Source: a virus (taxonomy: Duplodnaviria > Caudoviricetes). From it: a stretch of DNA of 64,000 nucleotides. Shown here piece by piece: positions 1,445 to 63,873 of this stretch. Both the position numbers and the translations under genes were made by a program. The notes beneath the pieces were generated by a model that was given only the letters and a program-made list of their open reading frames with translations, made no database searches and was not told the DNA's origin. How positions within the stretch are numbered: position 1 is the first letter of the stretch; each line of letters begins with the position of its first letter. Location of the stretch: IMG/VR virus record IMGVR_UViG_3300047550_002841, positions 869-64,868 of that record; one strand, given 5' to 3'.

Positions 1445-2056
1445 TTAAGTTCCTGCTGGGTCTAAATAATCTGGTGTACCGTCACCATCGGTATCTTGTG
1501 GTATATTAGGATTGGGTCCTGCCTCCAATTGATCTGGTATGCCATCTCCATCTGCATCCCAATCTAAGTAGTTTGGAATAGTATCTCCATCTGCGTCACC
1601 AACCCCTTCAACTACGTCTGGGATTGTATCGCCATCTGTATCCTGCAATACTGGGCCTTCACCGCCACCGCCTCCACCTTCTCCCGGATCTATAATAACT
1701 TCACCTCCACCAGTTCCAATGTCGGGGTTTCCGTCACCATCTCCGTCTACTAAGTACTCCTGACCAGATAAACTATTAACAAATGCATAGTACTCAGCCA
1801 TGCTTACTGCAAAGTTAACTCCGCATACTCCAGCAGCCTTTGACAACAATATATCAACTTGGTCAGAAGTCAAATAACCTGCATGATCCACTGCAAACAA
1901 ATACTGTAACGCATGTTTCTGATCTTGCACTTTAGTAGAGCAAGGAATATCATACTGGGCAGCTGTTTGCAAAGCAGTCTCGCTCGTAGAAATAAACTTC
2001 CTGAGATAAATCTTAGCCTTAACTAAGTTCTGTATTTGAATTGAAGTTAATGCCAT
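1445..2056 (-). CDS. Virion protein with C-terminal thrombospondin type-3-like Ca-binding repeats
   Basis: Likely start MALTSIQ at 2056 (TAATG overlap with upstream stop); five DxDGDxxPD/N repeats around a Gly-rich linker. Confidence 0.65.
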
Positions 2057-17914: not shown

Positions 17915-20900
17915 TTATTTATTATACAACCTAGGGTTTGGTCTATATTTAACCACGTAGTTAATCAACTTTTGGAAAATATTGGGTGCAAATCTCAACT
18001 TGATTTTTAAGTATCTGCCCCACAATCTAGAGGTATCGTTAGAATTTACGCTAGTTCCTGTAGAGTCATTTTTAATCGGAGCATAGTAAAAGTCTTCCAA
18101 CTCTTCAAATTCTGCACTAGTCAAAAATGAAACATGATCTCTAGTAGCAAAATCTAACCGCTCAGGAGTAATATCACTTACTACCTGCACTGCCTCAAAG
18201 TTTTTACTCAAGTTCGGATCAATATTTACCACCCCTTCAATGTGACCATTATATTGAACTCCATAGAATGTACTATAGTTACCTGAGTTGGCTACATAAA
18301 TTTTGTTCTGGTCGTCTGGTTTACTTGTATAGTAAGTGTTCCCACGACTAGTAATGATATTCGGATACTCAGTCATGAACCCAATAAAACCACCTTTCAC
18401 TTCATCATAAACCAATGTAAATATTTTAAAGTACTGTGGATGTGTATCAGGTGTTAACTTTTGCCATCTATTTGCCCACGTTGCTCCAAACTGAGGTACT
18501 GAATTAATAGTATCTAGATTGTTTACTGTTTTCAAGTATACAAATGGTACACCAGAAATATGTCGATCAGCAACCTCGGGCTCTCCGTAGTAATTGAAAT
18601 CTAACACATCACCACTGTGACTATTAACAACCAATGAGTTTATCGGATATTGAACAAACGTAAGATAGCTCGTGTCCGTATATGTCTGAAACTCAGATAT
18701 GCTTGGGTCTACTGCTGTAAATGACATCACAACTTCATAAAATCTTTGGTTGTAGCCAATAACTACTCCCTGACCAGTAATTGGTTGATCTTGTCTAGTA
18801 TGCCAATCCGTATTATTCATCAAATAGGATATCAATCCTTTATCCGAAATAACTTGAACTCCATTACCTGCAAAGCGTATTAATTTCTTTGCCCTACTAT
18901 TCCACCAATACAAATTCTCATCTCCAGTAAAGGTTTTACCCTTGGCAATAGCAAATTTATTAGTTGCTCCAAAACTACTGAGCTGCTGCCCTTTGTTGTT
19001 CAGAACCCCACCTGTACCAATAATTAGTTCAGTACCTGAGTCACTATTAACCACTTGAGTATCACCTACATAATGTCTTATAAATGCATCTGGCTGTAAC
19101 GAGTATAAGTTACTATTTACAGTTACAATATCAACTATCTCACCTTGGTTAGTATCTAAATCAACAACATCAATAGGCTTAAATACTCTGTAGTTATCTC
19201 TCTCAGAGCCAGTGCTTTTGACTTGTGAAAATCTTATAGACGCTGGACGCTTACCATCCCATCTAGAGTTAGGGTCAAAACCAGTTTCAGTAAAGACATT
19301 ATCTATCACTGAAAACTGTGAATCATAATTATTCTGATTGTCTACTTCCGGCCATTGCTCCAGCCAGTAAAGTAATCCAGTTCCCCACGCTCCTTGCGGT
19401 AGCTCTGCATAAGTAACTACGTTTGAAGCCAATGTCGCTACACCTGTAAATGTAGGTGACCAATCTCGAATATACGCATTGCCTGCACGTTTGTAACCTG
19501 CTTCGTTGATACCGGTAATAAATTTTTCCATGTACTGCGGATAAACAAATCCGGGACCTTCCTGTTCATCATTGTGGTCTATTGTATAGAACATCTGCGT
19601 ATTAGAGATGTTCTGTGAATAGAATGAATACGCCAATCCGAAACCATAATTCAATGAGTTATAAGTACTCATACGCATTTTTAAATGCGACTTTTGAGTA
19701 AATACATCTCCTCCGAAAACAGATACATTTGATTGTATGCCCCTTTCGTTACCTGTCATTATATATAAATGATTGGTTGTTTCATACACACTCTGCTCTT
19801 TATTGGCTGGGTACTTTGCGGTGTTGCCCTTGTCACGGAAAATTTGAGCATATACTAATCCTTCTTTATTAAATGTGCCTGATCCAGTAGCATACAAACC
19901 AGTGTATCCGGGAATAGTACTTAGTTTTGTTGTCAACTTGAATACTGTACAGGCTTTCATATTGCTGAAAAATGGATTTACACTAGCATAAGTTCTACCC
20001 TCGGGTGGAACACTAATTCCATTTTTAACCTTATCCATTCCTCCAAACGGTCTTGCTTCACCTGTCTGAAACTTTTCCGCTTCAGCAATTGTAAAATCAG
20101 TATACGGTACTAATGTGTTTTTGAAATAGCCTGTGTACTCTTGATGTACAGACTCATAGTCACCTGTATTAAAACCTTGAAGCGTATACTCATCATATGG
20201 TACTGGCACGCTTAAAACTTTCATCTTGTCACCTGCAACATATGTATACTGTACTTGGTTGAAGTACATGTCGGGCGAGTGGAAATAACCAAACTCAGAG
20301 TTATCAGTATTGCCCAACATGATATCATTTTGATAGGATGATGTTCTAAATGCTAAACTATGATCTCTTCTACAATAATTTGACGGAAAAGTAGAAAACG
20401 TAAATGATGGCGTTCTAACTACATCCTTGTGGTAAGGAATCAAATTATCTACCCCTAGACCGGGATCTGTATCTTCTCTCACTCCTCCTACAAGAAGTCC
20501 AGTTGCCAATACCTCGGGTATCCGATCACATCTTACAATTCTATACGCTTTTATCAAACGATACAGAGGTTCTCCATCAACTTGATAATCTAAATTGATA
20601 TTGTGAAATTTAGGATAGTAGATGTTGACGTAATCAGAATCTAGATTTGTAAAGTTTGTAGTTGTAATGTTATTGGCTGATCTGCGTGTAGGTGATGTAC
20701 AGTTAGTTGCTGACAAGTCAAAACGAATATCATCTACCCAATATGGCGAAGACCATTTACCAGTTTTTTTCCACTGAACTTGTATACCAAAACGATAGGT
20801 ATCATTCATCATGTAACCAGTATAGTTCAATACATTCTGAGGATCTTGGTATTCACCAAAACGATAGTTAGGATAAGTCTTATTTGTATCTCCTTTACCA

Positions 20901-22636
20901 AAACGATTGCCACGCCAAACACTTGGTATTTGTTTAATTTCAAGACTGTGGGTAATTTGAGATGCCCACTGCGTCAAATCAGCATCGACCATTTCTTCAA
21001 TGTTTGAAATAAATAGTCGATTACTGTTGATTCGCAAACTCTTCACTTTTGTCACTTTTGCTGTAAGAGCTAGTATTTCTGCTGGGGACAATGGGAAATT
21101 GTCTTGACCATTGTTGCTGTGAACAACTTCAATTGATGTTTCGTTATTCAAACGATATCTCTGAACCATTGAAGCAGTAAAAGTATCTCCTTCATATTCA
21201 ATAGCAACCAATTCAAAATAAGCGTATTCTCCCGGGGGAATGTTATCTACTCTGAGTTTTATTGATTTGTTTGTCAGAGTCCCCGGCTGATCACCTTTTA
21301 CTAAAGAAGCACTAGTTGTGTTTGTGCTAAATACATTAATAAGACCACTAGGATACAAATAATCTGTACCCACAAAATCATCGGTCACAAAACGACCAGA
21401 ATATCTTTTGTTACCACACTTCAGTGATCCACCCCCTTCAGTACTTTCCAAGTAGGTAATTGTAGCAGATGGTGTATCTACGAACAGGGCTGTTTCTTTA
21501 TCTACTTTAGATATATCAATAGTGCCACCGTAAGCAGTCAATACTCCATCCTGCACATAAGGGTATGGTACACTCAGTGCTCGGGGTTTATTGTAGTTGT
21601 CAGTCCAATATATATTGACATCTTGCGTACGTTTTTCTACGTCAGCTTGTATCTGATAATCAACATTAAATCCTAATCTCTTAGATTTTAACAGCCTTGT
21701 ATATGTATACGAATCTGTTGCCGAGTTATATTGAACTACACCAATTTCACTTAAACTACGAAACGGTGTGATATAACTTGCTGATAGATAATTTGGAGTA
21801 GCCAAAAAGACAATGGTATCATCGCCCACACTTTCCATTCCGATAATTTTATACTTCGCCACTAACGAAGTAAAATCTACCCACTCAGAAAGTTGAACAA
21901 GTTTATCGATTATGTTTCCTGACTCAATAATCTCAAAATCATCCCATGTAGTGTGCGATACATCAAAATATCCGCTTTCACTATCGATGTAGGTAAATGA
22001 AGTATAAACAAATCCAGCACTAAACGCAGTAAGAATCGTCTGTATTTGTGTAGTAAGTGAATTCACAGGAGTCGATGTCAACTCTTGTGAGCCAGAACCT
22101 GCAGAAGTAATGTCTATAATTGAAGTTAACGCTGCATTAGAATACAACTCAATAACAGTTCCAGAAATAACTTTTACATAGTAAGATGACCCAGATACAA
22201 GTGGTGTCGCTGCCGAACCAAATAAATTCAAGTAAGTTACAAGCTGACCATTGGAAAATGAGTGAGCACCTCCAAACGTAATTCTATTTAAAACTGTATC
22301 AATACTAGAAATCAAAATGCTAGTGGGCGATAACGCGGCTGTATAAGTAGTAGGACCACTTAATACGTTGTTACGATAAATGCCAATAGATCCATTAATT
22401 AAATATGGGTAGGTGGCTTTTACATATACTCTCCAAACAGTTTCTGTAGAAGTAGGATCAGGTATAGTTACTTTTAGACTATTTCCCTTCATAGGAGAAA
22501 CAGCCTGCAAATTAGACGATGAATCATCTCTATGTCTAATATTTTGGGCATCTATATAATTACCACCAGATACACCCTGTGGGTCTGTATCCTTATCCAT
22601 GATACCATTCTGAAGTAATTTTACGTGTATTCCCAT
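17915..22636 (-). CDS. Tail nozzle / stabilization (tail tubular B-like) protein
   Basis: 1573 aa, beta-rich; N-terminal GIMDKDTDP...YIDAQNIRH, internal YWTDNYNKPR and GYMMNDTYRFGI, C-terminal RLWGRYLKIKL as in crAss-like stabilization proteins. Confidence 0.75.
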   Translation of the reverse strand: MGIHVKLLQNGIMDKDTDPQGVSGGNYIDAQNIRHRDDSSSNLQAVSPMKGNSLKVTIPDPTSTETVWRVYVKATYPYLINGSIGIYRNNVLSGPTTYTAALSPTSILISSIDTVLNRITFGGAHSFSNGQLVTYLNLFGSAATPLVSGSSYYVKVISGTVIELYSNAALTSIIDITSAGSGSQELTSTPVNSLTTQIQTILTAFSAGFVYTSFTYIDSESGYFDVSHTTWDDFEIIESGNIIDKLVQLSEWVDFTSLVAKYKIIGMESVGDDTIVFLATPNYLSASYITPFRSLSEIGVVQYNSATDSYTYTRLLKSKRLGFNVDYQIQADVEKRTQDVNIYWTDNYNKPRALSVPYPYVQDGVLTAYGGTIDISKVDKETALFVDTPSATITYLESTEGGGSLKCGNKRYSGRFVTDDFVGTDYLYPSGLINVFSTNTTSASLVKGDQPGTLTNKSIKLRVDNIPPGEYAYFELVAIEYEGDTFTASMVQRYRLNNETSIEVVHSNNGQDNFPLSPAEILALTAKVTKVKSLRINSNRLFISNIEEMVDADLTQWASQITHSLEIKQIPSVWRGNRFGKGDTNKTYPNYRFGEYQDPQNVLNYTGYMMNDTYRFGIQVQWKKTGKWSSPYWVDDIRFDLSATNCTSPTRRSANNITTTNFTNLDSDYVNIYYPKFHNINLDYQVDGEPLYRLIKAYRIVRCDRIPEVLATGLLVGGVREDTDPGLGVDNLIPYHKDVVRTPSFTFSTFPSNYCRRDHSLAFRTSSYQNDIMLGNTDNSEFGYFHSPDMYFNQVQYTYVAGDKMKVLSVPVPYDEYTLQGFNTGDYESVHQEYTGYFKNTLVPYTDFTIAEAEKFQTGEARPFGGMDKVKNGISVPPEGRTYASVNPFFSNMKACTVFKLTTKLSTIPGYTGLYATGSGTFNKEGLVYAQIFRDKGNTAKYPANKEQSVYETTNHLYIMTGNERGIQSNVSVFGGDVFTQKSHLKMRMSTYNSLNYGFGLAYSFYSQNISNTQMFYTIDHNDEQEGPGFVYPQYMEKFITGINEAGYKRAGNAYIRDWSPTFTGVATLASNVVTYAELPQGAWGTGLLYWLEQWPEVDNQNNYDSQFSVIDNVFTETGFDPNSRWDGKRPASIRFSQVKSTGSERDNYRVFKPIDVVDLDTNQGEIVDIVTVNSNLYSLQPDAFIRHYVGDTQVVNSDSGTELIIGTGGVLNNKGQQLSSFGATNKFAIAKGKTFTGDENLYWWNSRAKKLIRFAGNGVQVISDKGLISYLMNNTDWHTRQDQPITGQGVVIGYNQRFYEVVMSFTAVDPSISEFQTYTDTSYLTFVQYPINSLVVNSHSGDVLDFNYYGEPEVADRHISGVPFVYLKTVNNLDTINSVPQFGATWANRWQKLTPDTHPQYFKIFTLVYDEVKGGFIGFMTEYPNIITSRGNTYYTSKPDDQNKIYVANSGNYSTFYGVQYNGHIEGVVNIDPNLSKNFEAVQVVSDITPERLDFATRDHVSFLTSAEFEELEDFYYAPIKNDSTGTSVNSNDTSRLWGRYLKIKLRFAPNIFQKLINYVVKYRPNPRLYNK

Positions 22637-25263: not shown

Positions 25264-25293
25264 AAATAAAAAACCCCTCCTAAGAGGGGTTTC
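25264..25293 (-). terminator. Rho-independent terminator
   Basis: Minus strand AAACCCCTC-TTAG-GAGGGGTTT followed by a T-run. Confidence 0.75.
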
Positions 25294-26212: not shown

Positions 26213-26240
26213 AAAAAAATGGGGGAGTCTCCCCCCCCAT
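26213..26240 (-). terminator. Rho-independent terminator after capsid/decoration genes
   Basis: Minus strand ATGGGGG...CCCCCAT stem followed by TTTTTT. Confidence 0.75.
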
Positions 26241-26257
26241 TAAAAGCACCAAATTAA

Positions 26258-29423: not shown

Positions 29424-31655
29424 TTATTCTGGTACAGTAGCTTGTTCAGTTGGTTGTGCTTCTGCTGCCATTTCTTCAGATGGGGCAGCAGGTGCCTCTT
29501 CTACGGTAGGTTCTTCGTTTGCTTGAGCTGGCATGTTCTTCGCCATGTTACCAGCAACTTGCAACTCAGCTCTATAGTTGTTACCGTCTTGAGCCATTTG
29601 TGCTTGTTCCTTCTGCATGGCCATTTGTGCTTCCATCTGAGCAGCTTGCATCATCTGAGCTCTTTGTGCTTCTAGCTTACGCTCACGATCTTTTTTGTCC
29701 ATGGCATATTCAAGTTCTTTTAACAACTCAGTGTAGGTTTTTGCAGTTTCGATACGGATATAATCACGCATATCAATCATTTGATTCTGCATGGCCGCCT
29801 GTGCAATAGCCAATAGACGCTCACGAGCTGCTTCGTCAACGAAATCTTTGATCTTAATGTATACGCCAAAATCTTCAAACTGAAACTCTTCGGTCAATTC
29901 CAAGTATTCAATGCCTCGGTTATCAACCAAGCCAATGGTATCTGTTTCCAAATCCATTAACGAAATCTTGTATTGATTCAAAGAGTACTGTAGATCCTTT
30001 TCCAAAAATTGAATGAAGCCTTGATATAGGTAAGCGGTTCCCAAGTTAGATTGAGCAATTGTACCTGCCTGTGTCTTAGCCCCCAAGTAGCCAGCCTGTT
30101 GACCCATTGCGACCTTTGGTACGTTGACGATTTCTTCCATGATACGCTCTTCCTCACGTTTCAAAGCAATGATTTGTTGTACGTTAGGATCCAATGTCAT
30201 ATCAACAACTTCTACAACTTTATTGTAATCTGCGTTGTTGAAGTCTTCACCTGTCATGTTGCCATCGGTGATGTGAATCCCCATTCTTTGGAAATCGTTT
30301 AACACATCCTGTGCTGTAGCAGATCCCAATTTATGTTTATTTAAAATGAAGACTTTGCCTTTAGCACGGTCTGTCATTTTGGTAATCTCATGGTTAAGGT
30401 AATCGATTCGATCTTGGTGTTTATGCAAACGAGATGCGATAGATCGAGTTTCACCCATCACCATATTTGGCAAAAAGATTTGAATTGGCAACTGAACATC
30501 AGTAGGATCATCTGTTCTACGAACAATGTTATTTGCTTCTCCGTAATCAACTACATATTTATTGGCAATCAAGGTTCCTTTGTAGATTGTCTTTATAAAG
30601 TATTTTGAATTGGTACGTGTTCTCATTTTGGCAAAGTGTTCGTTGCCATATTGATCTTTCACTTGTTCGTATCTCAATTCTTTGTAGCCAACCCAATAAC
30701 CCGTAACGCATGCCATCTTTGGGACACCGCTATAGTTATACCACCAACGCAATTTGTTTGAGGTTATGTATTCCTCTCCCAACATTTTATCCATGGTCTG
30801 GGTATTTACTGTTTTGATTTCGTCAATCTCTTGGGGTGTCAGATGCTGAATAAATTCAGGCTTAGCAAGAATTTCACCGGGAGTAAGCCAATCAATCTTA
30901 CCGCAGTAGTGTGCTCTATTATTAAAGTCATCATCTACTGAGTTATCCCAGATCAAGTTATAAGGTAGAATGATTTCTTTAAACTGCCGTCCGTTCTTAA
31001 TTGAGTTCTCGATACCACAAACGCCACCCAACAATAGATACAAGAATGCTTGTTTGTATTTTTCAATAAACTTGTTTCTATGTAGAATATCTTCAGCAAG
31101 TCTTTGAGCGACAACTTCAGAATACTCCTTGTAGTCGTACATCATGAACTTCCGAAGATCCTCAGGCATTTCAAACTCATCCATGCCAGTAGGAGTAAAC
31201 TCAACTCCCTTCTGTGACATGATATCAAAAATCTCTTGGTACTTGATCTTCAGCATTCCAAGAGCCAGTATTTCATTCTTTTTAGAGACTAGGGCTTCAG
31301 ATGTAGCACGAACAGATGGTTCAATGTTTTCAATCATCTTAATCGCATTGCCAATCATAAAGTCAATCATTGAGGTCAACTTCTGTCCATTAATCCATAC
31401 ACTAGGCAGATCGCAGTTGTCTTCGTCTTTAGTCTTGTAGTAATAGTCTCGGTTTTCTTGTTTGCCAAGGTAGTAAGTGAACATGCGGAGCATTTCATCT
31501 ACAGGCTTTTCAAAAGTTGCTGTGCTTTGATACCCCAACATATTCTGCTGCGTATTGTATTTTTCTGCAACATACCGCAGCGAATCCATATACCACTTTA
31601 CATCTTTCTGTATCTCTGGTATAAACTGATTGGGTTGATCTCTTAAAGCAATCAT
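29424..31655 (-). CDS. Portal protein
   Basis: 743 aa; Q/M/A-rich C-terminal barrel helix and acidic tail; first gene of the head operon. Confidence 0.85.
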   Translation of the reverse strand: MIALRDQPNQFIPEIQKDVKWYMDSLRYVAEKYNTQQNMLGYQSTATFEKPVDEMLRMFTYYLGKQENRDYYYKTKDEDNCDLPSVWINGQKLTSMIDFMIGNAIKMIENIEPSVRATSEALVSKKNEILALGMLKIKYQEIFDIMSQKGVEFTPTGMDEFEMPEDLRKFMMYDYKEYSEVVAQRLAEDILHRNKFIEKYKQAFLYLLLGGVCGIENSIKNGRQFKEIILPYNLIWDNSVDDDFNNRAHYCGKIDWLTPGEILAKPEFIQHLTPQEIDEIKTVNTQTMDKMLGEEYITSNKLRWWYNYSGVPKMACVTGYWVGYKELRYEQVKDQYGNEHFAKMRTRTNSKYFIKTIYKGTLIANKYVVDYGEANNIVRRTDDPTDVQLPIQIFLPNMVMGETRSIASRLHKHQDRIDYLNHEITKMTDRAKGKVFILNKHKLGSATAQDVLNDFQRMGIHITDGNMTGEDFNNADYNKVVEVVDMTLDPNVQQIIALKREEERIMEEIVNVPKVAMGQQAGYLGAKTQAGTIAQSNLGTAYLYQGFIQFLEKDLQYSLNQYKISLMDLETDTIGLVDNRGIEYLELTEEFQFEDFGVYIKIKDFVDEAARERLLAIAQAAMQNQMIDMRDYIRIETAKTYTELLKELEYAMDKKDRERKLEAQRAQMMQAAQMEAQMAMQKEQAQMAQDGNNYRAELQVAGNMAKNMPAQANEEPTVEEAPAAPSEEMAAEAQPTEQATVPE

Positions 31656-31661
31656 TTATTA

Positions 31662-31679
31662 CAAATTTACACAAATATA
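31662..31679 (-). promoter_or_regulatory. Tandem TAnnTTTG promoter elements upstream of the portal
   Basis: Minus strand TATATTTG-TG-TAAATTTG-TAATAA-ATG. Confidence 0.65.
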
Positions 31680-31744
31680 GAAAAGTAAAACAAGATTTCT
31701 CTTATTTTACTATTAGAGTACTAGTATAACATATTTGCTTGGTA

Positions 31745-31989
31745 CAGGACCAATGAGTGAGTTATCCCTTAAAAGGGTTATCACATTGGTCATACTGTGA
31801 CTTGCTCGTACACAGTCCCAATATCAATGAGGCATGCAAGCTCATTAACTTGGAATCAACTGTCGAAGGTTGCATCCTCCGTCCGGTCCTGCGACTCATT
31901 CCTTAGTGCCATCGCTGTGCTGTGCCGGAATCCCATGGTAGCACACTACCCTAAACCGCCACCGTGTTCTCACCGACCGATTTAGGGGG
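31745..31989 (-). ncRNA. Candidate structured non-coding RNA (~245 nt)
   Basis: GC-richer intergenic stretch directly after a TAAATTTG promoter; at least four hairpins; no convincing ORF. Confidence 0.5.
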
Positions 31990-31992
31990 ATA

Positions 31993-32000
31993 CAAATTTA
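31993..32000 (-). promoter_or_regulatory. Bacteroidota sigma-A -7 element (TAAATTTG) upstream of the ncRNA candidate
   Basis: Matches the TAnnTTTG consensus. Confidence 0.6.
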
Positions 32001-32017
32001 TACTACTTTTCGAGAAA

Positions 32018-32437
32018 TCAAAACGTACTCAACAAATTTTTTGAAGAAAGATATTCCATATCGTGAAACATCATATCCCACGGGCTCACATTAAAAGTAA
32101 AAGCCAATACGATTGTAGTATGCAAGATGTTTTCATCGATGTAGTAATCTTCTGACACCAGCAGTTGACTCTTGAACATATAGTTATCTTGTCCAGTTTT
32201 GCGTTTGACTTCTTCGTATAGCTTTGCGAAATTCATATTCCGCTCACGCATGATATACTTGATGTTCTTGGTAATGTTCTTGATGATGTGATTTACTTTT
32301 AATTCTTTCTGCTGAAAGAAGTACGTTTTGATTAGATCCTTGACTTTGATGTCTTCAATTACTTGTGAGTGTCCTTCTTGTTTGATCGCAATTATTTCCT
32401 GATCAATTTCATCCATGGTTAGTTTTTTTCTTGGCAT
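32018..32437 (-). CDS. Putative XRE/Cro-C1-like HTH protein
   Basis: KNIKYIMRERNMNFAKL...IVLAFTFNVSPWDMM resembles an XRE HTH; divergent from the recombination operon. Confidence 0.45.
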   Translation of the reverse strand: MPRKKLTMDEIDQEIIAIKQEGHSQVIEDIKVKDLIKTYFFQQKELKVNHIIKNITKNIKYIMRERNMNFAKLYEEVKRKTGQDNYMFKSQLLVSEDYYIDENILHTTIVLAFTFNVSPWDMMFHDMEYLSSKNLLSTF

Positions 32438-32442
32438 TTTTA

Positions 32443-32450
32443 TATATTTG
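32443..32450 (+). promoter_or_regulatory. TAnnTTTG promoter element for the SSB/recombination operon
   Basis: TATATTTG about 50 nt upstream of the ATG at 32501. Confidence 0.55.
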
Positions 32451-32500
32451 TGTTAACGTCTCTCGGACACAAAAATAGGAAACCTTTATTACTTATATAT

Positions 32501-33166
32501 ATGGCACTCGGAAACAACTCGTCCTCAATTTACTTGGACTTAAGAAACGGTAAAGTTTATCGTTACAGCAAAACAAACGAACCCGGCACAACAGCAATTC
32601 AAACTGCAAAGGGCGAAACACGGTACTTCTACATCTACGATTTTGTAGAGGGGCATGTCACAAACTTCTCAACTCGACAGGAGGACATTCAAGGAAAACT
32701 TAAACTGAAGTTTCAGATCCATTTGAAAGATGGCAATGATGACTACATAGTTAAGATGGATGTAGACTCATCTTACTTCAGAATGTTCTGCAGCGTAATC
32801 CCCAACATTGATTGGAATTTCCCTGTAAGATTAATACCACGGATCAAGGAAGAGCAAGGCGTAAAGAAGTCCTCTTTAATTACAGTAAACAATGGTAAGC
32901 CATGTAAGTTTGCTTTCACCAGAGAGAATCCTAACGGCAAGCCGGAAGTAACCTTTACTAAAAACAAAAAGGGTGAAGTAATTGACATTGATCGTGAGGA
33001 GGAGCAACAGTTCTTCTTCAACTTGATTGCAGATGCCAAAACCAAATTGGTACATCCAGCTGTGGCACAACCTGCTCCTACAAGTGACCGTGTTGCAACA
33101 AACGTAAAGCCTGCTCAAAACTTTTCAGAGGATGAAGCCTTTGAAGATGATGACTTACCATTTTAA
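32501..33166 (+). CDS. Single-stranded DNA-binding-like protein
   Basis: Likely start MALGNN at 32501; beta-rich body, flexible linker and acidic C-terminus EDDDLPF. Confidence 0.65.
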   Translation: MALGNNSSSIYLDLRNGKVYRYSKTNEPGTTAIQTAKGETRYFYIYDFVEGHVTNFSTRQEDIQGKLKLKFQIHLKDGNDDYIVKMDVDSSYFRMFCSVIPNIDWNFPVRLIPRIKEEQGVKKSSLITVNNGKPCKFAFTRENPNGKPEVTFTKNKKGEVIDIDREEEQQFFFNLIADAKTKLVHPAVAQPAPTSDRVATNVKPAQNFSEDEAFEDDDLPF

Positions 33167-48160: not shown

Positions 48161-48489
48161 CTCAACTTAAGATTAGAAAAAAGAATGTTGAAGTAATCAA
48201 CATTGTCTTGAGTAGTGAGCAGTACACAAAGTTAAAGAAGCTGGCTGATGAGAATGGTTTTTCATCGCCAGCTAATTTAATTGATGATATCGTTCACTCT
48301 TATTTTAATAAGCACCGAACTAGAATTCGCAAAACCGTGGAGGAGTACGAGAAATCCATTAAAATGCCAGTGCAGATATCACAGAATAACTGGCACATGC
48401 TATCACGCTACTCTGAATCTACCAAAATATCAAAGGGAACCTTTATACATTTAATACTACGAGAGATAATTAAAAAAATACCAAAATGA
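48157..48489 (+). CDS. Tandem ribbon-helix-helix DNA-binding protein
   Basis: Two strand-helix-helix units (INIVLSSEQYTKLKKLA..; MPVQISQNNWHMLSRYS..); coupled to the recombinase. Confidence 0.55.
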   Translation: MTQLKIRKKNVEVINIVLSSEQYTKLKKLADENGFSSPANLIDDIVHSYFNKHRTRIRKTVEEYEKSIKMPVQISQNNWHMLSRYSESTKISKGTFIHLILREIIKKIPK

Positions 48490-49175
48490 AACGAGCCGCT
48501 TTTTATACGCGTGTGAGCCACGACAATCAAGTCGAAGATGGATCATCATTAGAAAACCAAAAAGATCGCATAGAAGCGTTCTGTAAGCTAAATAACTACT
48601 CTATAGTAGCATCATTCTCTGACCCCGGAGTCTCTGGTCGTAAGTTTGAAAACAGACCAGAGTTTATGAAGATGATGAAACTCGTAGAGAAAAAACAAAT
48701 CGATGTAATTGTAGTCTATAGTCTATCTCGTTTCGGTAGAAACCTAAAGGATACTTTGAAATGGATATCTTTTCTAGAAAGTAAGGGCGTTTCGTTCTAC
48801 ACATTAGACTTTCAAATAGACACATCTACTTCTCATGGTAAACTTATGCTTCAGATGATGGGAGCCTTTGCTGAATTTGAAAGCAACCAGCGTGGGGAAT
48901 TGATTTCATCTGTGATGAAGTACCTGAAAAAAGAACAGAAAGTTTATTGCGGTCCTACACCTTTAGGGTTTCACAAGAAAAATGGATCTTTGATTGTGGA
49001 TGAAGAAGAAATGAAAATAGTTAAAACTATCTTCAGCTGGAAGAATACTATGCCACACTCTACCATTGCTAGACTTTGCAATGATATGGGGTTTCAGACC
49101 AAGAAAGGCAAGAAGTTCTATCACACCACCATTGATAAAATCGTAAACAATAATATCTATGAACAACATCTTTGA
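48486..49175 (+). CDS. Serine recombinase (resolvase/invertase catalytic domain with short C-terminal DNA-binding domain)
   Basis: YTRVS (catalytic Ser), D.GVSGR..NRP, SRFGRN and AEFE motifs; 229 aa, lacks the Zn-ribbon/coiled-coil of large serine integrases. Confidence 0.92.
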   Translation: MKRAAFYTRVSHDNQVEDGSSLENQKDRIEAFCKLNNYSIVASFSDPGVSGRKFENRPEFMKMMKLVEKKQIDVIVVYSLSRFGRNLKDTLKWISFLESKGVSFYTLDFQIDTSTSHGKLMLQMMGAFAEFESNQRGELISSVMKYLKKEQKVYCGPTPLGFHKKNGSLIVDEEEMKIVKTIFSWKNTMPHSTIARLCNDMGFQTKKGKKFYHTTIDKIVNNNIYEQHL

Positions 49176-59313: not shown

Positions 59314-59848
59314 CTGATGCGTATTTAACTCCCATGATGGTTCCTATAATAGAAAATGAATTCGTCAACAATATACCAAACAGATTAGACCAAGTACTCT
59401 CTATAATCTTGGCATCCAACCCCTTGGATATAACGTAAAAGTACAAGAGAGATGTCAGAAATGCAACAGTTCCGATGATTCCTAACGCCACTTTAACAAT
59501 GAGCCCAACTAATTCAAACTGGGTTCTCTTCTGTAAGGTTTCTAAATCCTCTACCGCAGCATCTCGTAACTTAACAGACTCCGACAAAGCAACCTGTAGC
59601 TCGCCCATGAGCTTCTCTCTTTCTGCTTGGCTATCTATTAAATCCTTATTTTGTTGTTGGACTTGCTTGGTTATTTCTAATCGCTTCCTTCTAGTTTCGT
59701 TATCTCTTTGTTTTGCCTCATCTATGTATTGCTGAAACTCCTTATTTGTAGTCTTAATTACTTTCAGTAAGTTTCCCTCTAGTGCAACTTTTTTAGATTT
59801 GTACAGAGAGATTAAGTCGGACTCAATATCTTTACCAAAGGATATCAC
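59300..59848 (-). CDS. Coiled-coil protein with two C-terminal TM helices
   Basis: Long N-terminal coiled coil and two hydrophobic helices; 4-nt overlap with the receiver gene. Confidence 0.65.
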   Translation of the reverse strand: MISFGKDIESDLISLYKSKKVALEGNLLKVIKTTNKEFQQYIDEAKQRDNETRRKRLEITKQVQQQNKDLIDSQAEREKLMGELQVALSESVKLRDAAVEDLETLQKRTQFELVGLIVKVALGIIGTVAFLTSLLYFYVISKGLDAKIIESTWSNLFGILLTNSFSIIGTIMGVKYASGEKR

Positions 59849-60282
59849 TTATACACTTTAAAGGGAGCAGTTTTATTTTTATAGCCATCGTAGTCCTTAC
59901 GGAAAGCTTCTAAGCGTGGCTCAATCTCATCACTCTTAATAATCCAAAACTGTGCTCCAACCTTTTTAGCTTTCTCTATCTCTTGTTTATCATCAGACGA
60001 AGAGATGATACCTATGACTACACCGTTTCCGTATTCGCCATTGATCTTACGAATCAGCTCAATGCCATCAAAAGAAGAACCTATAATATTTAAATCTACG
60101 AATACACACTCGGGTTTATCTTCTTCTGGGCCCTCATCAAACCATTTTTTAAATAGGCGATCAGCTTCGTCAGAAGAAGTCAAACTTTGTAAACTTAGAG
60201 TTATATCTAAAAGACTGCAAGAATCTTCAAACACAAGATGAAACAAATCTTCATCGTCAACCAATAGTATAGAATCAATCAT
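59845..60282 (-). CDS. Single-domain response regulator (CheY-like receiver)
   Basis: ILLVDDE, phospho-acceptor FVDLN, DGIELI, ISSS and GA..WIIK. Confidence 0.92.
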   Translation of the reverse strand: MIDSILLVDDEDLFHLVFEDSCSLLDITLSLQSLTSSDEADRLFKKWFDEGPEEDKPECVFVDLNIIGSSFDGIELIRKINGEYGNGVVIGIISSSDDKQEIEKAKKVGAQFWIIKSDEIEPRLEAFRKDYDGYKNKTAPFKVYK

Positions 60283-61505
60283 AATCTTATTTTAATTTTT
60301 GTACCCACATCAAGTTTTTCTACCTCTATTTTGAAGTCATGTTCTTCCATAATAGCCGTACATATATTCAAACCTAAACCAGATCCGGCTTCTGCTTGAC
60401 CTTCTTTACGAATATATGGCTGAGACCATGTTTCAAAATCTTTCTGAGACATCCCTCTTCCGTTATCTTGGATAACAAAATAGTTATTTTCCACAAAGAT
60501 ATGGACTAATTTTGTTGCCGAATCGTTGTATTTTAAACCGTTTCGGATCAAATTATCCACTGCTGTACAGAATAAACTTTCATTGACTAAAATAGTGGGC
60601 ATATCATCTATAACCACTTGCTTTTCATATGATGTACTAGACAAATAAGATTGTAAAATTTCTTTTAAGTTGCACTCAGTCCTCTCTAACTGAGCATCTT
60701 TTTTTACCAGATTCGTAAACTCCTTAACCCCACGATACACCTTTTGTGTGTGTACCAAACCTTCCTCAATCATTCTTAGAGGTGCATCCACCTTCAATGT
60801 TTTAATTTGCTCCTGAGTCAATCTTCGTTTCAATGAACTCAAGCCTCTGGGTATGTACGTATTAATACCAGAGTGCATATCATGACGCAATATTTTTGCC
60901 GCATGCTCTAAGTAAGAATTCTTCTTTGCGATTTCAACCTCAATGTTCTTCTTAGCGGTTATATCTGTTGCTATCTTAAGCACCCTATATACCTCACCAT
61001 AAGGATCCATAATTGGGTTGTAGTTCCCGTAAATCCAAACTGCCTCACCTTTTTTATTTCTTCTTTTAAATTCACCTGAAACAGACCGTCCTGCTCTAAG
61101 ATTTCTCCATAAACTCACATGTTCCTCCTGCGAAAAATCATGAATTAAATCACGATGATTCATTTGCTTCAGTTCACTGTTGCGATACCCAGTGATGTCT
61201 GAAAATATATCATTAGCATTTAAAATACTCCCATCTGTATCTAGTTCTACTAATGCGTTAGATAAATTAATAGCCAGTAGCGTATCGTCAACTGACTGTG
61301 CTTTGTATTGTGCTTTTCTTACAAACTCAACTGCCCCTATAAAAAAGAAAGGTATGAATGCAATAATACATCCATACCCAAACTCTATAATTAATAACGA
61401 TGGTTTAAAATATCCAAATACTACTGCACTCTGAACCCCGAAGAAAGTCATCATGATTGCAATCGCAATCAATAGGGAGCACTTAGCCAGTAGTGATAGT
61501 TTCAC
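60279..61505 (-). CDS. Membrane PAS-domain sensor histidine kinase
   Basis: Two TM helices, PAS/PAC domain, H-box LRHDMHS, N-box NLIRNGLKY, G1 DNGRGM, G2 GSGLGL; GTG start. Confidence 0.93.
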   Translation of the reverse strand: MKLSLLAKCSLLIAIAIMMTFFGVQSAVVFGYFKPSLLIIEFGYGCIIAFIPFFFIGAVEFVRKAQYKAQSVDDTLLAINLSNALVELDTDGSILNANDIFSDITGYRNSELKQMNHRDLIHDFSQEEHVSLWRNLRAGRSVSGEFKRRNKKGEAVWIYGNYNPIMDPYGEVYRVLKIATDITAKKNIEVEIAKKNSYLEHAAKILRHDMHSGINTYIPRGLSSLKRRLTQEQIKTLKVDAPLRMIEEGLVHTQKVYRGVKEFTNLVKKDAQLERTECNLKEILQSYLSSTSYEKQVVIDDMPTILVNESLFCTAVDNLIRNGLKYNDSATKLVHIFVENNYFVIQDNGRGMSQKDFETWSQPYIRKEGQAEAGSGLGLNICTAIMEEHDFKIEVEKLDVGTKIKIRL

Positions 61506-63007: not shown

Positions 63008-63253
63008 TTAATTTTCCAATGGTGGAAATGGTGGTGTTACAACTTCAAACTCACTCGGTGTTCCAAGAACAGGGGTTAATGATTCATCGAAAACAATATA
63101 CCAAAATTGTGGTGTGTTCAATTCTGCAAACTGATAGTCCACCCAATTCTGCGTAACATCATCGGGCGAAACTGGGATGCCATAGTAAGCATCACACGCC
63201 TCACGAGCGTTGATTGCTTCTTGTTCGGTGTTATATTGGTAACCAATTGTCAT
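63008..63253 (-). CDS. Tail-fibre-associated small protein
   Basis: 81-aa acidic ORF (GYQYNTEQEA) downstream of the tail fibre and endonuclease. Confidence 0.55.
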   Translation of the reverse strand: MTIGYQYNTEQEAINAREACDAYYGIPVSPDDVTQNWVDYQFAELNTPQFWYIVFDESLTPVLGTPSEFEVVTPPFPPLEN

Positions 63254-63873
63254 AGTATTAAGTATTGTTTATTAGACTTTCTTTTTAAGCCCTGCAATGC
63301 AGTTTGATAATTAATGCAATATAGTGAAGCAAATTGCATAATGCTTTCATGAAACACTCCAGTATATAAATCAAGAACTTGTCTTGAAACACCGCTTTTT
63401 AACCCTCTTGCAGACTTCTCTTTGTTTTTTGGTATTCCCTTTTGGATAATACTCAAGTGTGTTTTTTGTTCTTCAGTCAAACTCCAATCTCTACCGCTTT
63501 CTCTTAGTTTTTTACGATGTTCGTCAGACAACTTTCTACCTTTATGCGCTTGTGCTATTTTTTGCTTATGTTCATCGCTAAACACTTGCCCCGAAGTTCC
63601 ATCGCCACCATCTGTTAAATTACAAAGAGTTCCAGTGCTTAAATTAATTCTTCCATATAATGATATGAATTCCTTCTCCTTAACCTTTGCTTCTTCAAAT
63701 GTAATATCGTCACACATAATCTGAACTTTGTAATCTGTCCTTGACACTATGCCTTTCCATATTTTGCTTCTATGGGATTTGGCCGTTGCTCTGTAATAAT
63801 GCTCATCACTTCCAATACCAATATAGAATGGTTGGTTTTTGTCTAATCTAATATGTCGGTAAACGTAAGCCAT
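63250..63873 (-). mobile_element. Free-standing GIY-YIG-like homing endonuclease with NUMOD3 repeats
   Basis: YVYRH...PFYIGIG, E..FI..YGR, NLTDGGDG; two S.EH..K NUMOD3-like repeats. Confidence 0.85.

Follow-up and report, generated by a model that had tools for sequence, protein, structure and literature searches.

Stand-alone structured RNAs of phages with a known role are few. In phages P1 and P7 (c4 RNA) and in P4 (CI RNA), a small structured RNA is flanked by two direct repeats embedded in its own transcript, and changes in the repeat sequence set an element-specific (hetero-immune) specificity; phi29 encodes a structured packaging RNA (pRNA) with a loop-loop pairing; and the put element of HK022 and the EAR element are folded RNAs that open a long operon, with a promoter before them and a terminator after them. 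The Rfam database also holds the orphan family Betaproteobacteria-1 (RF02932), whose model covers 120 nucleotides (nt) only. Here we report on an RNA gene found in a window of 64,000 nt, corresponding to positions 869 to 64,868 of the 64.9-kb virus record IMGVR_UViG_3300047550_002841, which carries crAss-type virion genes according to the annotation of the open reading frames (ORFs) of the window. The phage that carries the gene is crAss-like, with a host among the Bacteroidota. The minus strand between about 31685 and 31990 is predicted to be an independent transcription unit, making a large and knotted non-coding RNA of ~260-300 nt, and we consider it almost certain that this is a real structured RNA gene. 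Its 5' core is apparently a distant relative, although not a member, of Betaproteobacteria-1, and its 3' part carries two short segments that change in parallel from lineage to lineage.

The RNA lies in an ORF-free gap of 362 nt between a 139-aa ORF and the portal ORF, just inside a block of minus-strand genes that extends up to 32437 and is followed by plus-strand genes from 32450 on. The GC-richer non-coding stretch that a first-pass annotation of this DNA had pointed out was indeed found, the GC fraction being 0.49-0.55 in the core of the gap (31800-31999) versus 0.23-0.38 in the flanks. The same annotation credited the RNA with a promoter of its own, and a -7 box TAAATTTG of the type TAnnTTTG, which we take to be the Bacteroidota -7 promoter consensus, abuts its 5' end, with a TTTG located ~20 nt upstream of the box (~32017-32020, minus strand). 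A TAnnTTTG box abuts the start of the RNA model in 16 of 25 homologs and is found 20 nt off in one further homolog. At the opposite end, an AT-rich hairpin followed by UUUU is the likely terminator of the RNA gene; it was omitted by the terminator scan, having fewer than three G-C pairs, and its stem shows compensatory changes in four relatives (L001, L003, L004 and L005, alignment inspected by eye). The separate tandem promoters claimed for the portal gene are also in place, TATATTTG and TAAATTTG preceding its ATG, and the TAnnTTTG box before the portal is kept in all the relatives aligned. Finally, in one homolog (L047) the ORF downstream of the RNA is convergent and not co-oriented. The own box, the covarying hairpin with its U-tract, the box of the portal and the convergent gene of L047 all support the view that the RNA is not just the 5' untranslated region of the portal gene. 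A protein-coding signature, which the annotation had named as the finding that would speak against an RNA, was absent from the sense strand: stops close all three sense frames in the 17 homologs checked (17/17) and in the window too, the antisense ORFs (26-80 aa) vary in place and length among homologs, and the indels between RNA groups are not multiples of three.

The layout of the RNA gene, a terminator and then a promoter-like box, recurs between other late genes. Strong intrinsic terminators at 26218-26241 and 25270-25293 (minus strand), within the structural block, are each followed by a promoter-like box and the next ORF, and after the terminator and box at 25270-25293 the ATG comes directly. 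Because terminators and promoter-like boxes are arranged in this way between the genes, the late genes look like separate transcription units. As for expression, in a lake metatranscriptome an isolated 174-nt contig falls wholly within the RNA (31781-31954, 4 differences, depth 3), and contigs of the same study cover neighbouring genes at depth 5-8.5; a 393-nt contig from a wastewater run that is labelled RNA only presumptively spans the whole element. These data consist of contigs only, with depths of 3-8.5, and regions without cover are uninformative.

The distribution of the RNA was outlined by combining different searches. The portal protein search yielded 25 loci in viral contigs; at the nucleotide level (blastn), the gap ahead of the portal gene is conserved at 80-85% in L001-L007, where portal identity is 72-83%, and two weak matches occur at the same place in L017 and L020, with portals ~55% identical. 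A 16-nt core motif was found in 32 stretches of viral contigs, 12 of which carry the RNA as judged by eye; the other 20 were dropped as chance matches, also by eye. A two-part pattern gave 21 metagenome loci and no stretch in the representative genomes of 185,579 prokaryote species, and blastn of the 362-nt gap in distant mode gave no match among 50,697 deposited phage records. The 40 matching loci, from phage and metagenome contigs, correspond to 25 distinct sequences, and two more were added by hand. The covariance model R1, built on the 5' half of the 13 sequences that align best, scores all the 25 family sources at E <= 8.5e-17 and matches the window at 31851-31991 with 70.7 bits (E = 2e-19). 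In 22 of the 25 loci the RNA is immediately followed by a portal homolog. The remaining three are L034, where the locus ends early and a close relative (L073) has the portal, L071, a contig of 1.3 kb, and L047, where the next gene is convergent and no portal homolog lies within the 3-kb locus. The RNA is conserved, in both sequence and structure, across phage lineages whose portals are only ~55% identical, so that the lack of conservation in relatives that would have spoken against the first-pass annotation is not observed.

Since the fold of the single sequence is weak evidence, the structure was judged from the relatives, and the case for it rests on covariation. The 5' half contains five helices and three pseudoknots. 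When the five nested helices and two of the pseudoknots were counted on the R1-guided alignment (23 distinct rows, 42 pairs), 96.5% of the cells were paired, versus 38-44% in slid controls in which the partners were moved by 1-3 columns; 23 of the 42 pairs changed on both sides, and none of 500 shuffles reached the covariation score. This alignment was fitted to the nested helices and hence favours them; the two pseudoknots are not in the model, and they are still paired in 98.3% (PK1) and 100% (PK2) of the cases. In PK1, which joins the loops of the neighbouring hairpins P1 and P2, three of the five pairs changed on both sides (GUGG/CCAU to ACAG/CUGU), and the single variable pair of PK2 is A-U in 11 rows, C-G in 11 and U-A in one. 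When RNAalifold was run on a MAFFT alignment, it returned P3 and P5, a portion of P8 and a loop-loop pairing, PK1 being found by this program too. On the same kind of alignment the pseudoknot TCCGG/CCGGA (PK3), which the first-pass annotation had guessed, is 91.3% paired versus 15-49% in slid controls, with five of six pairs changed on both sides. A core (31851-31990) made up of P1, P2, P3, P5 and the three pseudoknots, with many invariant loop bases, among them the near-invariant 15-nt loop GGCACUAAGGAAUGA closed by P3, is followed by a 3' part (31733-31850) with P6 and the P8 domain, on either side of which the twin segments are located. The helices of the 3' part, taken as a set in group B (13 sequences), are 87.5% paired versus 36-55% in slid controls, and P8 alone is 95.7% paired in that group.

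Most of the stems proposed in the first-pass annotation coincide with elements of this structure (Table 1). The stem CCCTAAATCG/CGGTTTAGGG is P1 (31978-31987 with 31949-31958), with compensatory changes in the relatives; GACCAATG/CATTGGTC is P8 (31784-31791 with 31748-31755), with compensatory changes in group B; and ACTGTG/CACAGT is P7 (31811-31816 with 31794-31799), replaced by AAGAC/GUCUU in close relatives. AATGAG/CTCATT is present within P6 (31841-31848 with 31824-31831) and is only moderately kept in group B, whereas the TAGTG/CACTA pairing that the pseudoknot was supposed to cross is not kept in the relatives, as judged by eye, P2 and P3 being found there instead. The general proposal of a structured non-coding RNA is borne out by the pairing and covariation of the homologs collected.

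Table 1. Positions in the window of the elements of the RNA gene and of the genes around it.
Feature	Position	Strand	Remarks
Conserved RNA body, ~258 nt	31733-31990	minus	alignments A3 and A7; model R1
Promoter -7 box TAAATTTG, type TAnnTTTG	31993-32000	minus	abuts the 5' end of the RNA
P1 hairpin CCCUAAAUCG/CGGUUUAGGG, loop GGUCGG...ACGGUGGC	31949-31987	minus	9/11 pairs changed on both sides
PK1, kissing pairing of P1 loop CGGUGG with P2 loop CCAUGG	31959-31964 with 31933-31938	minus	
P2 hairpin GUGCU/AGCAC	31917-31944	minus	100% paired; 4/6 pairs changed on both sides
PK3, UCCGG (P2 loop) with CCGGA	31925-31929 with 31882-31886	minus	
P3 hairpin GCGAU/GUCGC	31891-31915	minus	98.3% paired; 3/5 pairs changed on both sides
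PK2, GGAAU (P3 loop) with AUUCC	31898-31902 with 31852-31856	minus	100% paired
P5 hairpin GGAGG/CCUUC	31865-31880	minus	99.3% paired
P6 hairpin UUAAUGAG/CUCAUUGA	31824-31848	minus	76.6% paired in group B, imperfect alignment register
P7 hairpin ACUGUG/CACAGU	31794-31816	minus	loop carries the first twin-segment copy
DR1b, first twin copy ACGAGCAAGU	31800-31809	minus	just before P8, in the P7 loop
P8 domain: GACCAAUG/CAUUGGUC, then GUGA/UCAC, then CCCUU/AAGGG	31748-31791	minus	
DR2b, second twin copy CCAAGCAAAU	31733-31742	minus	just after P8, in the single-stranded 3' tail
AT-rich hairpin GUAAAAUAAGA/UCUUGUUUUAC, then UUUU	31685-31710	minus	likely terminator of the RNA gene
Portal tandem promoter boxes TATATTTG + TAAATTTG	31662-31679	minus	6 nt before the portal ATG
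Portal	29424-31655	minus	phrog_6547; ATG at 31653-31655
139-aa ORF	32018-32437	minus	other border of the RNA-bearing gap
Muzzle protein	17915-22636		crAss-type virion gene
Ring proteins			crAss-type virion genes in the window
crAss major capsid protein			weak match only, among the window ORFs
4148-aa ORF			in the window, listed beside the crAss-type virion genes

The search of Rfam suggested in the first-pass annotation, carried out on the region 31000-33000 with a relaxed threshold (E <= 10), gave no match above cut-off; it did give a sub-threshold match to Betaproteobacteria-1 at 31894-31987, with 34.4 bits (E = 2.8e-4) as compared with the gathering cut-off of 49.4 bits for RF02932. The other four matches in this region (E from 0.67 to 8) are not credible. 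The same model scores 31.0 bits in L001 and 30.3 bits in L005, and L017 and L020 are not listed at E <= 1. The conserved loops of hairpin 1 (GGuCGG...ACggCAGC) and hairpin 2 (CUGuGGGaaA) of RF02932 are both present in the RNA of the window, and both RF02932-like hairpins covary in the phage family. True members were sought as well: a pattern derived from the consensus led to one metagenome-assembled genome of the Burkholderiaceae, which scores 100.8 bits, and the RF02932 model found members in 2 of 151 Burkholderiales genomes (the order) and in 8 of 151 Burkholderiaceae genomes (the family). In the opposite direction, the phage-only model R1 matches the Burkholderiaceae copy L084 exactly at the Rfam position (E = 0.011), and the phage-only model R2 matches three copies at the Rfam place and strand, with E-values that are rough (3e-4 in L084, 0.024 in L085 and 0.27 in L093).

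On the basis of these comparisons, the 5' core of the phage RNA would be distantly related to Betaproteobacteria-1 and would not belong to it. The two RNAs share neighbouring hairpins with conserved loops (GGUCGG...ACGGCAGC and CUGUGGGAA) able to kiss, a third hairpin whose loop is rich in purines (GGCGAAGG against GGCACUAAGGA) and a pseudoknot formed by the second loop with a stretch located 3' of the third hairpin; indeed, as judged by eye, the members from Burkholderiaceae share the P1-P2 kissing loops, P3 with the loop GGCGAAGG, and PK3. They are also alike in their location in mobile elements and in the twin variable segments around a downstream hairpin, neither the hairpin nor the segments being described in the Rfam model. 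They differ in the phylum of the host, Betaproteobacteria-1 being found on Burkholderiaceae chromosomes and the phage RNA in phages with Bacteroidota-type promoters, and in the presence in the latter of the extra elements PK2, P5 and P6.

The eight copies of Betaproteobacteria-1 analyzed belong to transposon cargo, to prophage-like regions or to defence-like islands, and no protein gene neighbours all of them. Three of them (L084, L094 and L095) are beside a Tn7-like gene set, consisting of a transposase-sized ORF without Pfam match, tniB and tniQ; of the others, L092 has NinB in its vicinity, L096 has RdgC and a crAss001_48-like domain, L093 has HTH and ImmA-like genes, L085 is flanked by an AAA_13 protein and a HAD_SAK_2 RNA-repair protein, and L097 stands beside DUF6361 and a helicase. 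In the three Tn7-like cases (genomes G001, G233 and G283) the RNA stands just past tniQ and is convergent with it, in the usual cargo position. Such mobile-element contexts would fit a role of the phage RNA in the conflict between mobile elements and their hosts. An anti-defence RNA, which was another suggestion of the first-pass annotation, is a candidate function only.

The feature that, in our opinion, deserves most attention is represented by the twin segments. In each of the 11 haplotypes of this RNA type the two copies are identical at positions 2-6, which read AACAA, AGCAA, UUCAA, AUCAA, UUCAG or AGAAA depending on the lineage; in the closely related L038, L064 and L066 (R1 scores of 173.6-180.7 bits) the segments differ by single bases, with the same change in both copies. 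The copy-to-copy differences within the motif that persist across lineages concern positions 1 and 7, where G stands against A, and both G and A pair with U. The spacing between the copies ranges from ~60 to 121 nt. When the repeat was tested within single sequences it was mostly not significant, 0-118 of 200 shuffles scoring as well, and for this reason the signal is to be sought in the parallel change across lineages. A similar picture was obtained for the Burkholderiaceae RNAs, which extend beyond the 120-nt Rfam model and have conserved flanks, GGCUCCAUAC and CCUCACCAC; in four of them each flank is followed by the same variable string (CUGCA, CGUAGCA, GGGCAUCC or GGCA), and in three others the twin match is unclear.

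Moreover, relatives that lack this RNA, with portals ~53-56% identical, carry at the same place a second RNA type of ~215 nt. Here the two motifs also change in parallel (GAGAAAG/AAGAAAA, GAGGAAG/AAGGAAA and GAGCAAG/AAGCAAG), and positions 2-6 are identical in the six copies scored (6/6; AGAAA, AGGAA, AGCAA); a seventh copy, in L009, shows by eye a poorer match, GAGAAAGUGC against AAGAAGAGUGC. This second type, found in L008, L009, L010, L011, L012, L014, L018, L021 and L022 ~60-300 nt upstream of the portal start, reads CACCGCAGUCC...GGAAAGGGGGGAAAGGGGGGUAUGG...CCAAGAAAAU and has its own TAnnTTTG box; neither R1 nor R2 has a match in L008-type or L015-type portal loci. Thus, the alignments indicate that twin segments co-vary in the RNA of the window, in the second RNA type and in the Burkholderiaceae RNAs, a property that we regard as new. 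Pairing between two copies of the same sense cannot produce such a parallel change, which points to either a third partner shared by both or repeated copying; simple copying is disfavoured, because the stable G/A differences adjoin the bases that change.

Based on these data, the explanation that we rank first, without granting it even chances, is that the RNA acts in trans and that the twin segments give it base-pairing specificity. According to this model, the conserved core would hold a factor or provide a fixed fold, and the twin segments would pair with a U-containing nucleic-acid partner, ensuring an element-specific recognition comparable to that of duplicated seeds or of immunity-type antisense determinants. 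We place the action in trans first since the gene is autonomous, since its relatives are untied to any downstream gene or neighbouring protein, and since the segments are single-stranded and evolve as a matched pair with wobble-compatible differences. The trans action, the pairing by the segments and the very existence of a partner are put forward as what these observations would suggest.

Several points weigh against this proposal and against the evidence that leads to it. The RNA stands directly before the portal gene in most loci, and in other relatives this site is taken by the second RNA type, which has the twin motif as well; both facts would suit a cis role tied to the locus. The twin segments span only 5-10 nt. 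No complement of the variable segment was found within the RNA or in its flanks of 1.5 kb on each side, and none is positionally conserved; in the window as a whole, the complement is not enriched (68 matches versus 66.6 expected; 20 versus 16.0), and the mRNA of the divergent neighbouring gene forms duplexes, but no site covaries with the segment. As for the kinship with Betaproteobacteria-1, its score is below the Rfam cut-off, five of the eight true members have no R2 match at E < 1, and the match in L096 (E = 1.3) lies elsewhere. The single-sequence fold of a 256-nt stretch has a z-score of -2.0, with 7 of 200 shuffles folding as well, and the metatranscriptome contigs, compatible with transcription of the RNA, are a weak indication, DNA carry-over being possible at depth 3.

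Two further observations concern the search for a partner. In a related virus record of 13.8 kb the motif occurs 10 times versus 2.65 +- 1.6 in shuffles; its contexts are unrelated, and the signal was considered too weak to be used. In two of the Burkholderiaceae copies, a third copy of segment plus flank, ACCCGUAGCAG, lies ~770 nt downstream of the RNA (L094 7431-7441 and L095 7850-7860), between tniQ and a 167-aa ORF, and would be complementary to the twin segments on an opposite-strand transcript. Its expected number by chance is ~0.03, a rough estimate, and it was not seen in L084, L093 and L097; we regard it only as a lead.

The comparison with the c4 and CI RNAs is instructive in this respect. 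Like them, the phage RNA is structured and flanked by two direct repeats, whose changes would set an element-specific specificity. In c4 and CI, however, the part of the RNA enclosed by the repeats is complementary to them, whereas in the phage RNA such complementarity is limited to the first part of the repeat and the 5' strand of P8. A C4/CI-type antisense RNA was consequently rejected, given that no complement of the variable segment exists in the RNA or in its flanks and that no Rfam C4 match appears at E <= 10.

A broader view, which we consider somewhat unlikely, is that the RNA might be the phage branch of a wide and unrecognised class of RNAs residing on mobile elements, from Bacteroidota phages to the transposons, prophages and islands of Burkholderiaceae, in which a pseudoknotted scaffold would be combined with a duplicated, fast-evolving address of 5-10 nt, in a programmable, guide- or immunity-like manner and with no dedicated neighbouring protein. 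If this were true, the address would decide the target nucleic acid, which might belong to a rival element or be a tRNA or another RNA of the host. A literature search, covering titles and the beginnings of abstracts, gave no pointer to the phage RNA, to the extension of Betaproteobacteria-1 or to the twin segments.

The second-ranked explanation, in our view an unlikely one, is that of a cis leader of the late genes, the portal gene being the first of them. In this case, the polymerase starting from the RNA promoter would read through the hairpin at 31685-31710 and the fold of the RNA would control the read-through, either by processive antitermination, as in the HK022 put and EAR elements, or as an attenuator or riboswitch with alternative pairings around P8. 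The strict position directly upstream of the portal (22 of 25 loci), the occurrence of a different RNA with the same twin motif at the same place where portals are ~53-56% identical, and the hairpin and U-tract interposed between RNA and portal are all in agreement with such a role. The put and EAR elements, too, are folded RNAs that lie between promoter and terminator where a long operon begins. However, the portal has a promoter of its own, with a box 6 nt before the ATG in the window that is kept in all the relatives aligned, and other late genes also have their own pairs of terminator and promoter-like box; the next gene is convergent in L047 and in the Burkholderiaceae relative L084, so that some relatives have no co-oriented next gene at all; and no Rfam match to the put or EAR elements was obtained. 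As for the alternative pairings, one that would join the 5' strand of P8 to a copy, located upstream, of the sequence it pairs with in P8 is conceivable (81% paired), but it is not better than slid controls (60-73%). The portal box, L047 and L084 led us to reject a riboswitch or cis leader of the kind that always precedes a co-oriented promoterless gene.

The many invariant unpaired bases of the knotted core, and the fact that in all three groups like sequences flank one conserved hairpin domain, might also be explained by self-processing, a ribozyme being among the suggestions of the first-pass annotation. In this case the core would be catalytic or would recruit an RNase, and the twin segments would be processing sites freeing the P8 domain as a molecule of ~70-120 nt, possibly circular. 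We judge this distinctly unlikely. Indeed, no Rfam ribozyme family appears at E <= 10 in 31000-33000, the second RNA type keeps the twin motif without the 5' core (no R2 match in L008-type loci), and the sites of a fixed catalytic core or enzyme are not expected to vary so fast.

Even less probable, in our opinion, is an RNA directed at tRNAs, in which the twin segments would be codon-like specifiers (a core NNA plus a purine) binding the anticodon loops of U34 tRNAs, in order to shield, sense or sequester them in conflicts with anticodon nucleases. The variable core of the phage RNAs can indeed be read as GCA, GAA, GGA, ACA or UCA, and that of four Burkholderiaceae RNAs as GCA, and the copy in L085 stands between a HAD_SAK_2 RNA-repair protein and an AAA_13 protein; AAA_13 proteins include anticodon nucleases. 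However, the triplet register is our own choice and bases outside the triplet also change in parallel, no element for binding the elbow or the 3' end of a tRNA was identified, and ARAGORN finds no tRNA gene in the window or in the 27 loci. The RNA itself is neither a tRNA nor a transfer-messenger RNA (tmRNA): ARAGORN calls no tRNA or tmRNA gene in the window (0) or in the 27 loci, and no Rfam match to either lies in 31000-33000. A separate observation concerns L005, where a tRNA-like gene at 1903-2027 (minus strand of the locus) reaches 36.6 bits with the tRNA model of Rfam, whose cut-off is 29, and is not called by ARAGORN. Its acceptor, D and T arms are normal, but 69 nt take the place of the anticodon arm; it is flanked by sites with hairpin and U-tract, and has no counterpart in the window.

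A packaging RNA, which was also among the suggestions of the first-pass annotation, would multimerise via the PK1 loop-loop pairing and dock on the portal, as phi29 pRNA does. It shares with pRNA a phage origin, a structured nature and a covarying loop-loop pairing, possibly intramolecular here, and its gene adjoins the portal gene; yet we regard this role as highly improbable. CrAss-like phages package their DNA with a terminase, and the gene of phi29 pRNA is not known to adjoin the portal gene of phi29. Besides, there is no sequence or Rfam match with pRNA, relatives of the RNA reside in non-phage mobile contexts, such as the transposon cargo and defence-like islands of Burkholderiaceae, with no portal nearby, L047 has no portal homolog in its 3-kb locus, and the two kissing loops sit on neighbouring hairpins of one molecule.

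Equally little room is left for repeats that work as DNA, serving as an origin or a pac site or binding a regulator where the early and late modules diverge, with the RNA fold being secondary. The element is placed at the strand switch between the minus- and plus-strand gene blocks, and other short tandem repeats exist between RNA and portal promoter in some relatives; but the compensatory changes in 23 of 42 pairs, including those of pseudoknots, show selection on the RNA fold, the spacing of the twin copies varies (~60 to 121 nt), and the differences that the copies have kept inside the motif are of the G/A kind, which one would expect from wobble pairing of an RNA. The tandem repeats just mentioned are direct, 9-12 nt long and phage-specific; they were found in L010, L012, L014 and L017 (for example GGACUCGGA, CCAGAGACUA and AAGUCUAGA, each present twice) and look like operator sites for the portal promoter.

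The least probable explanation of all is that a reverse transcriptase uses the RNA as its template and jumps on it by means of the twin segments, as with the short repeats on either side of the template in DRT2 RNAs: direct repeats do flank a structured segment here and relatives are on mobile or defence-linked elements, but no reverse transcriptase was found among the window ORFs (58 scanned with Pfam, 55 with PADLOC) or beside the eight Burkholderiaceae copies, the sole DRT-labelled PADLOC match covers only the Toprim part of a primase-helicase, and a retron- or DRT-type template RNA, which has a reverse-transcriptase gene adjacent to it, was rejected on the same scans.

The remaining observations concern other genes of the window. 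The 238-aa ORF opening the plus-strand block (32450-32503 region) probably has its GTG start listed too early; the alignment with its relatives begins only at about residue 13-18, and a TATATTTG box precedes an ATG located at ~32501-32503. A PAS-domain histidine kinase (60279-61505, minus strand) and a response-regulator receiver protein (59845-60282, minus strand) resemble a two-component pair, a serine recombinase with Resolvase and Recombinase domains is encoded at 48486-49175 (plus strand), and an ORF at 63250-63873 (minus strand) matches homing-endonuclease.

Coming back to the RNA gene, an orphan Rfam motif of Burkholderiaceae is now linked to phages of another phylum, with an extended architecture and a placement in mobile elements. 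The twin segments offer an experimental handle, in that swapping them should reprogram the recognition if the RNA acts in trans by base pairing; were this true, the RNA would represent a new, sequence-addressed kind of RNA in the conflicts between elements and hosts. Should the RNA act in cis as a leader instead, crAss-like phages would control their late genes by a new device.

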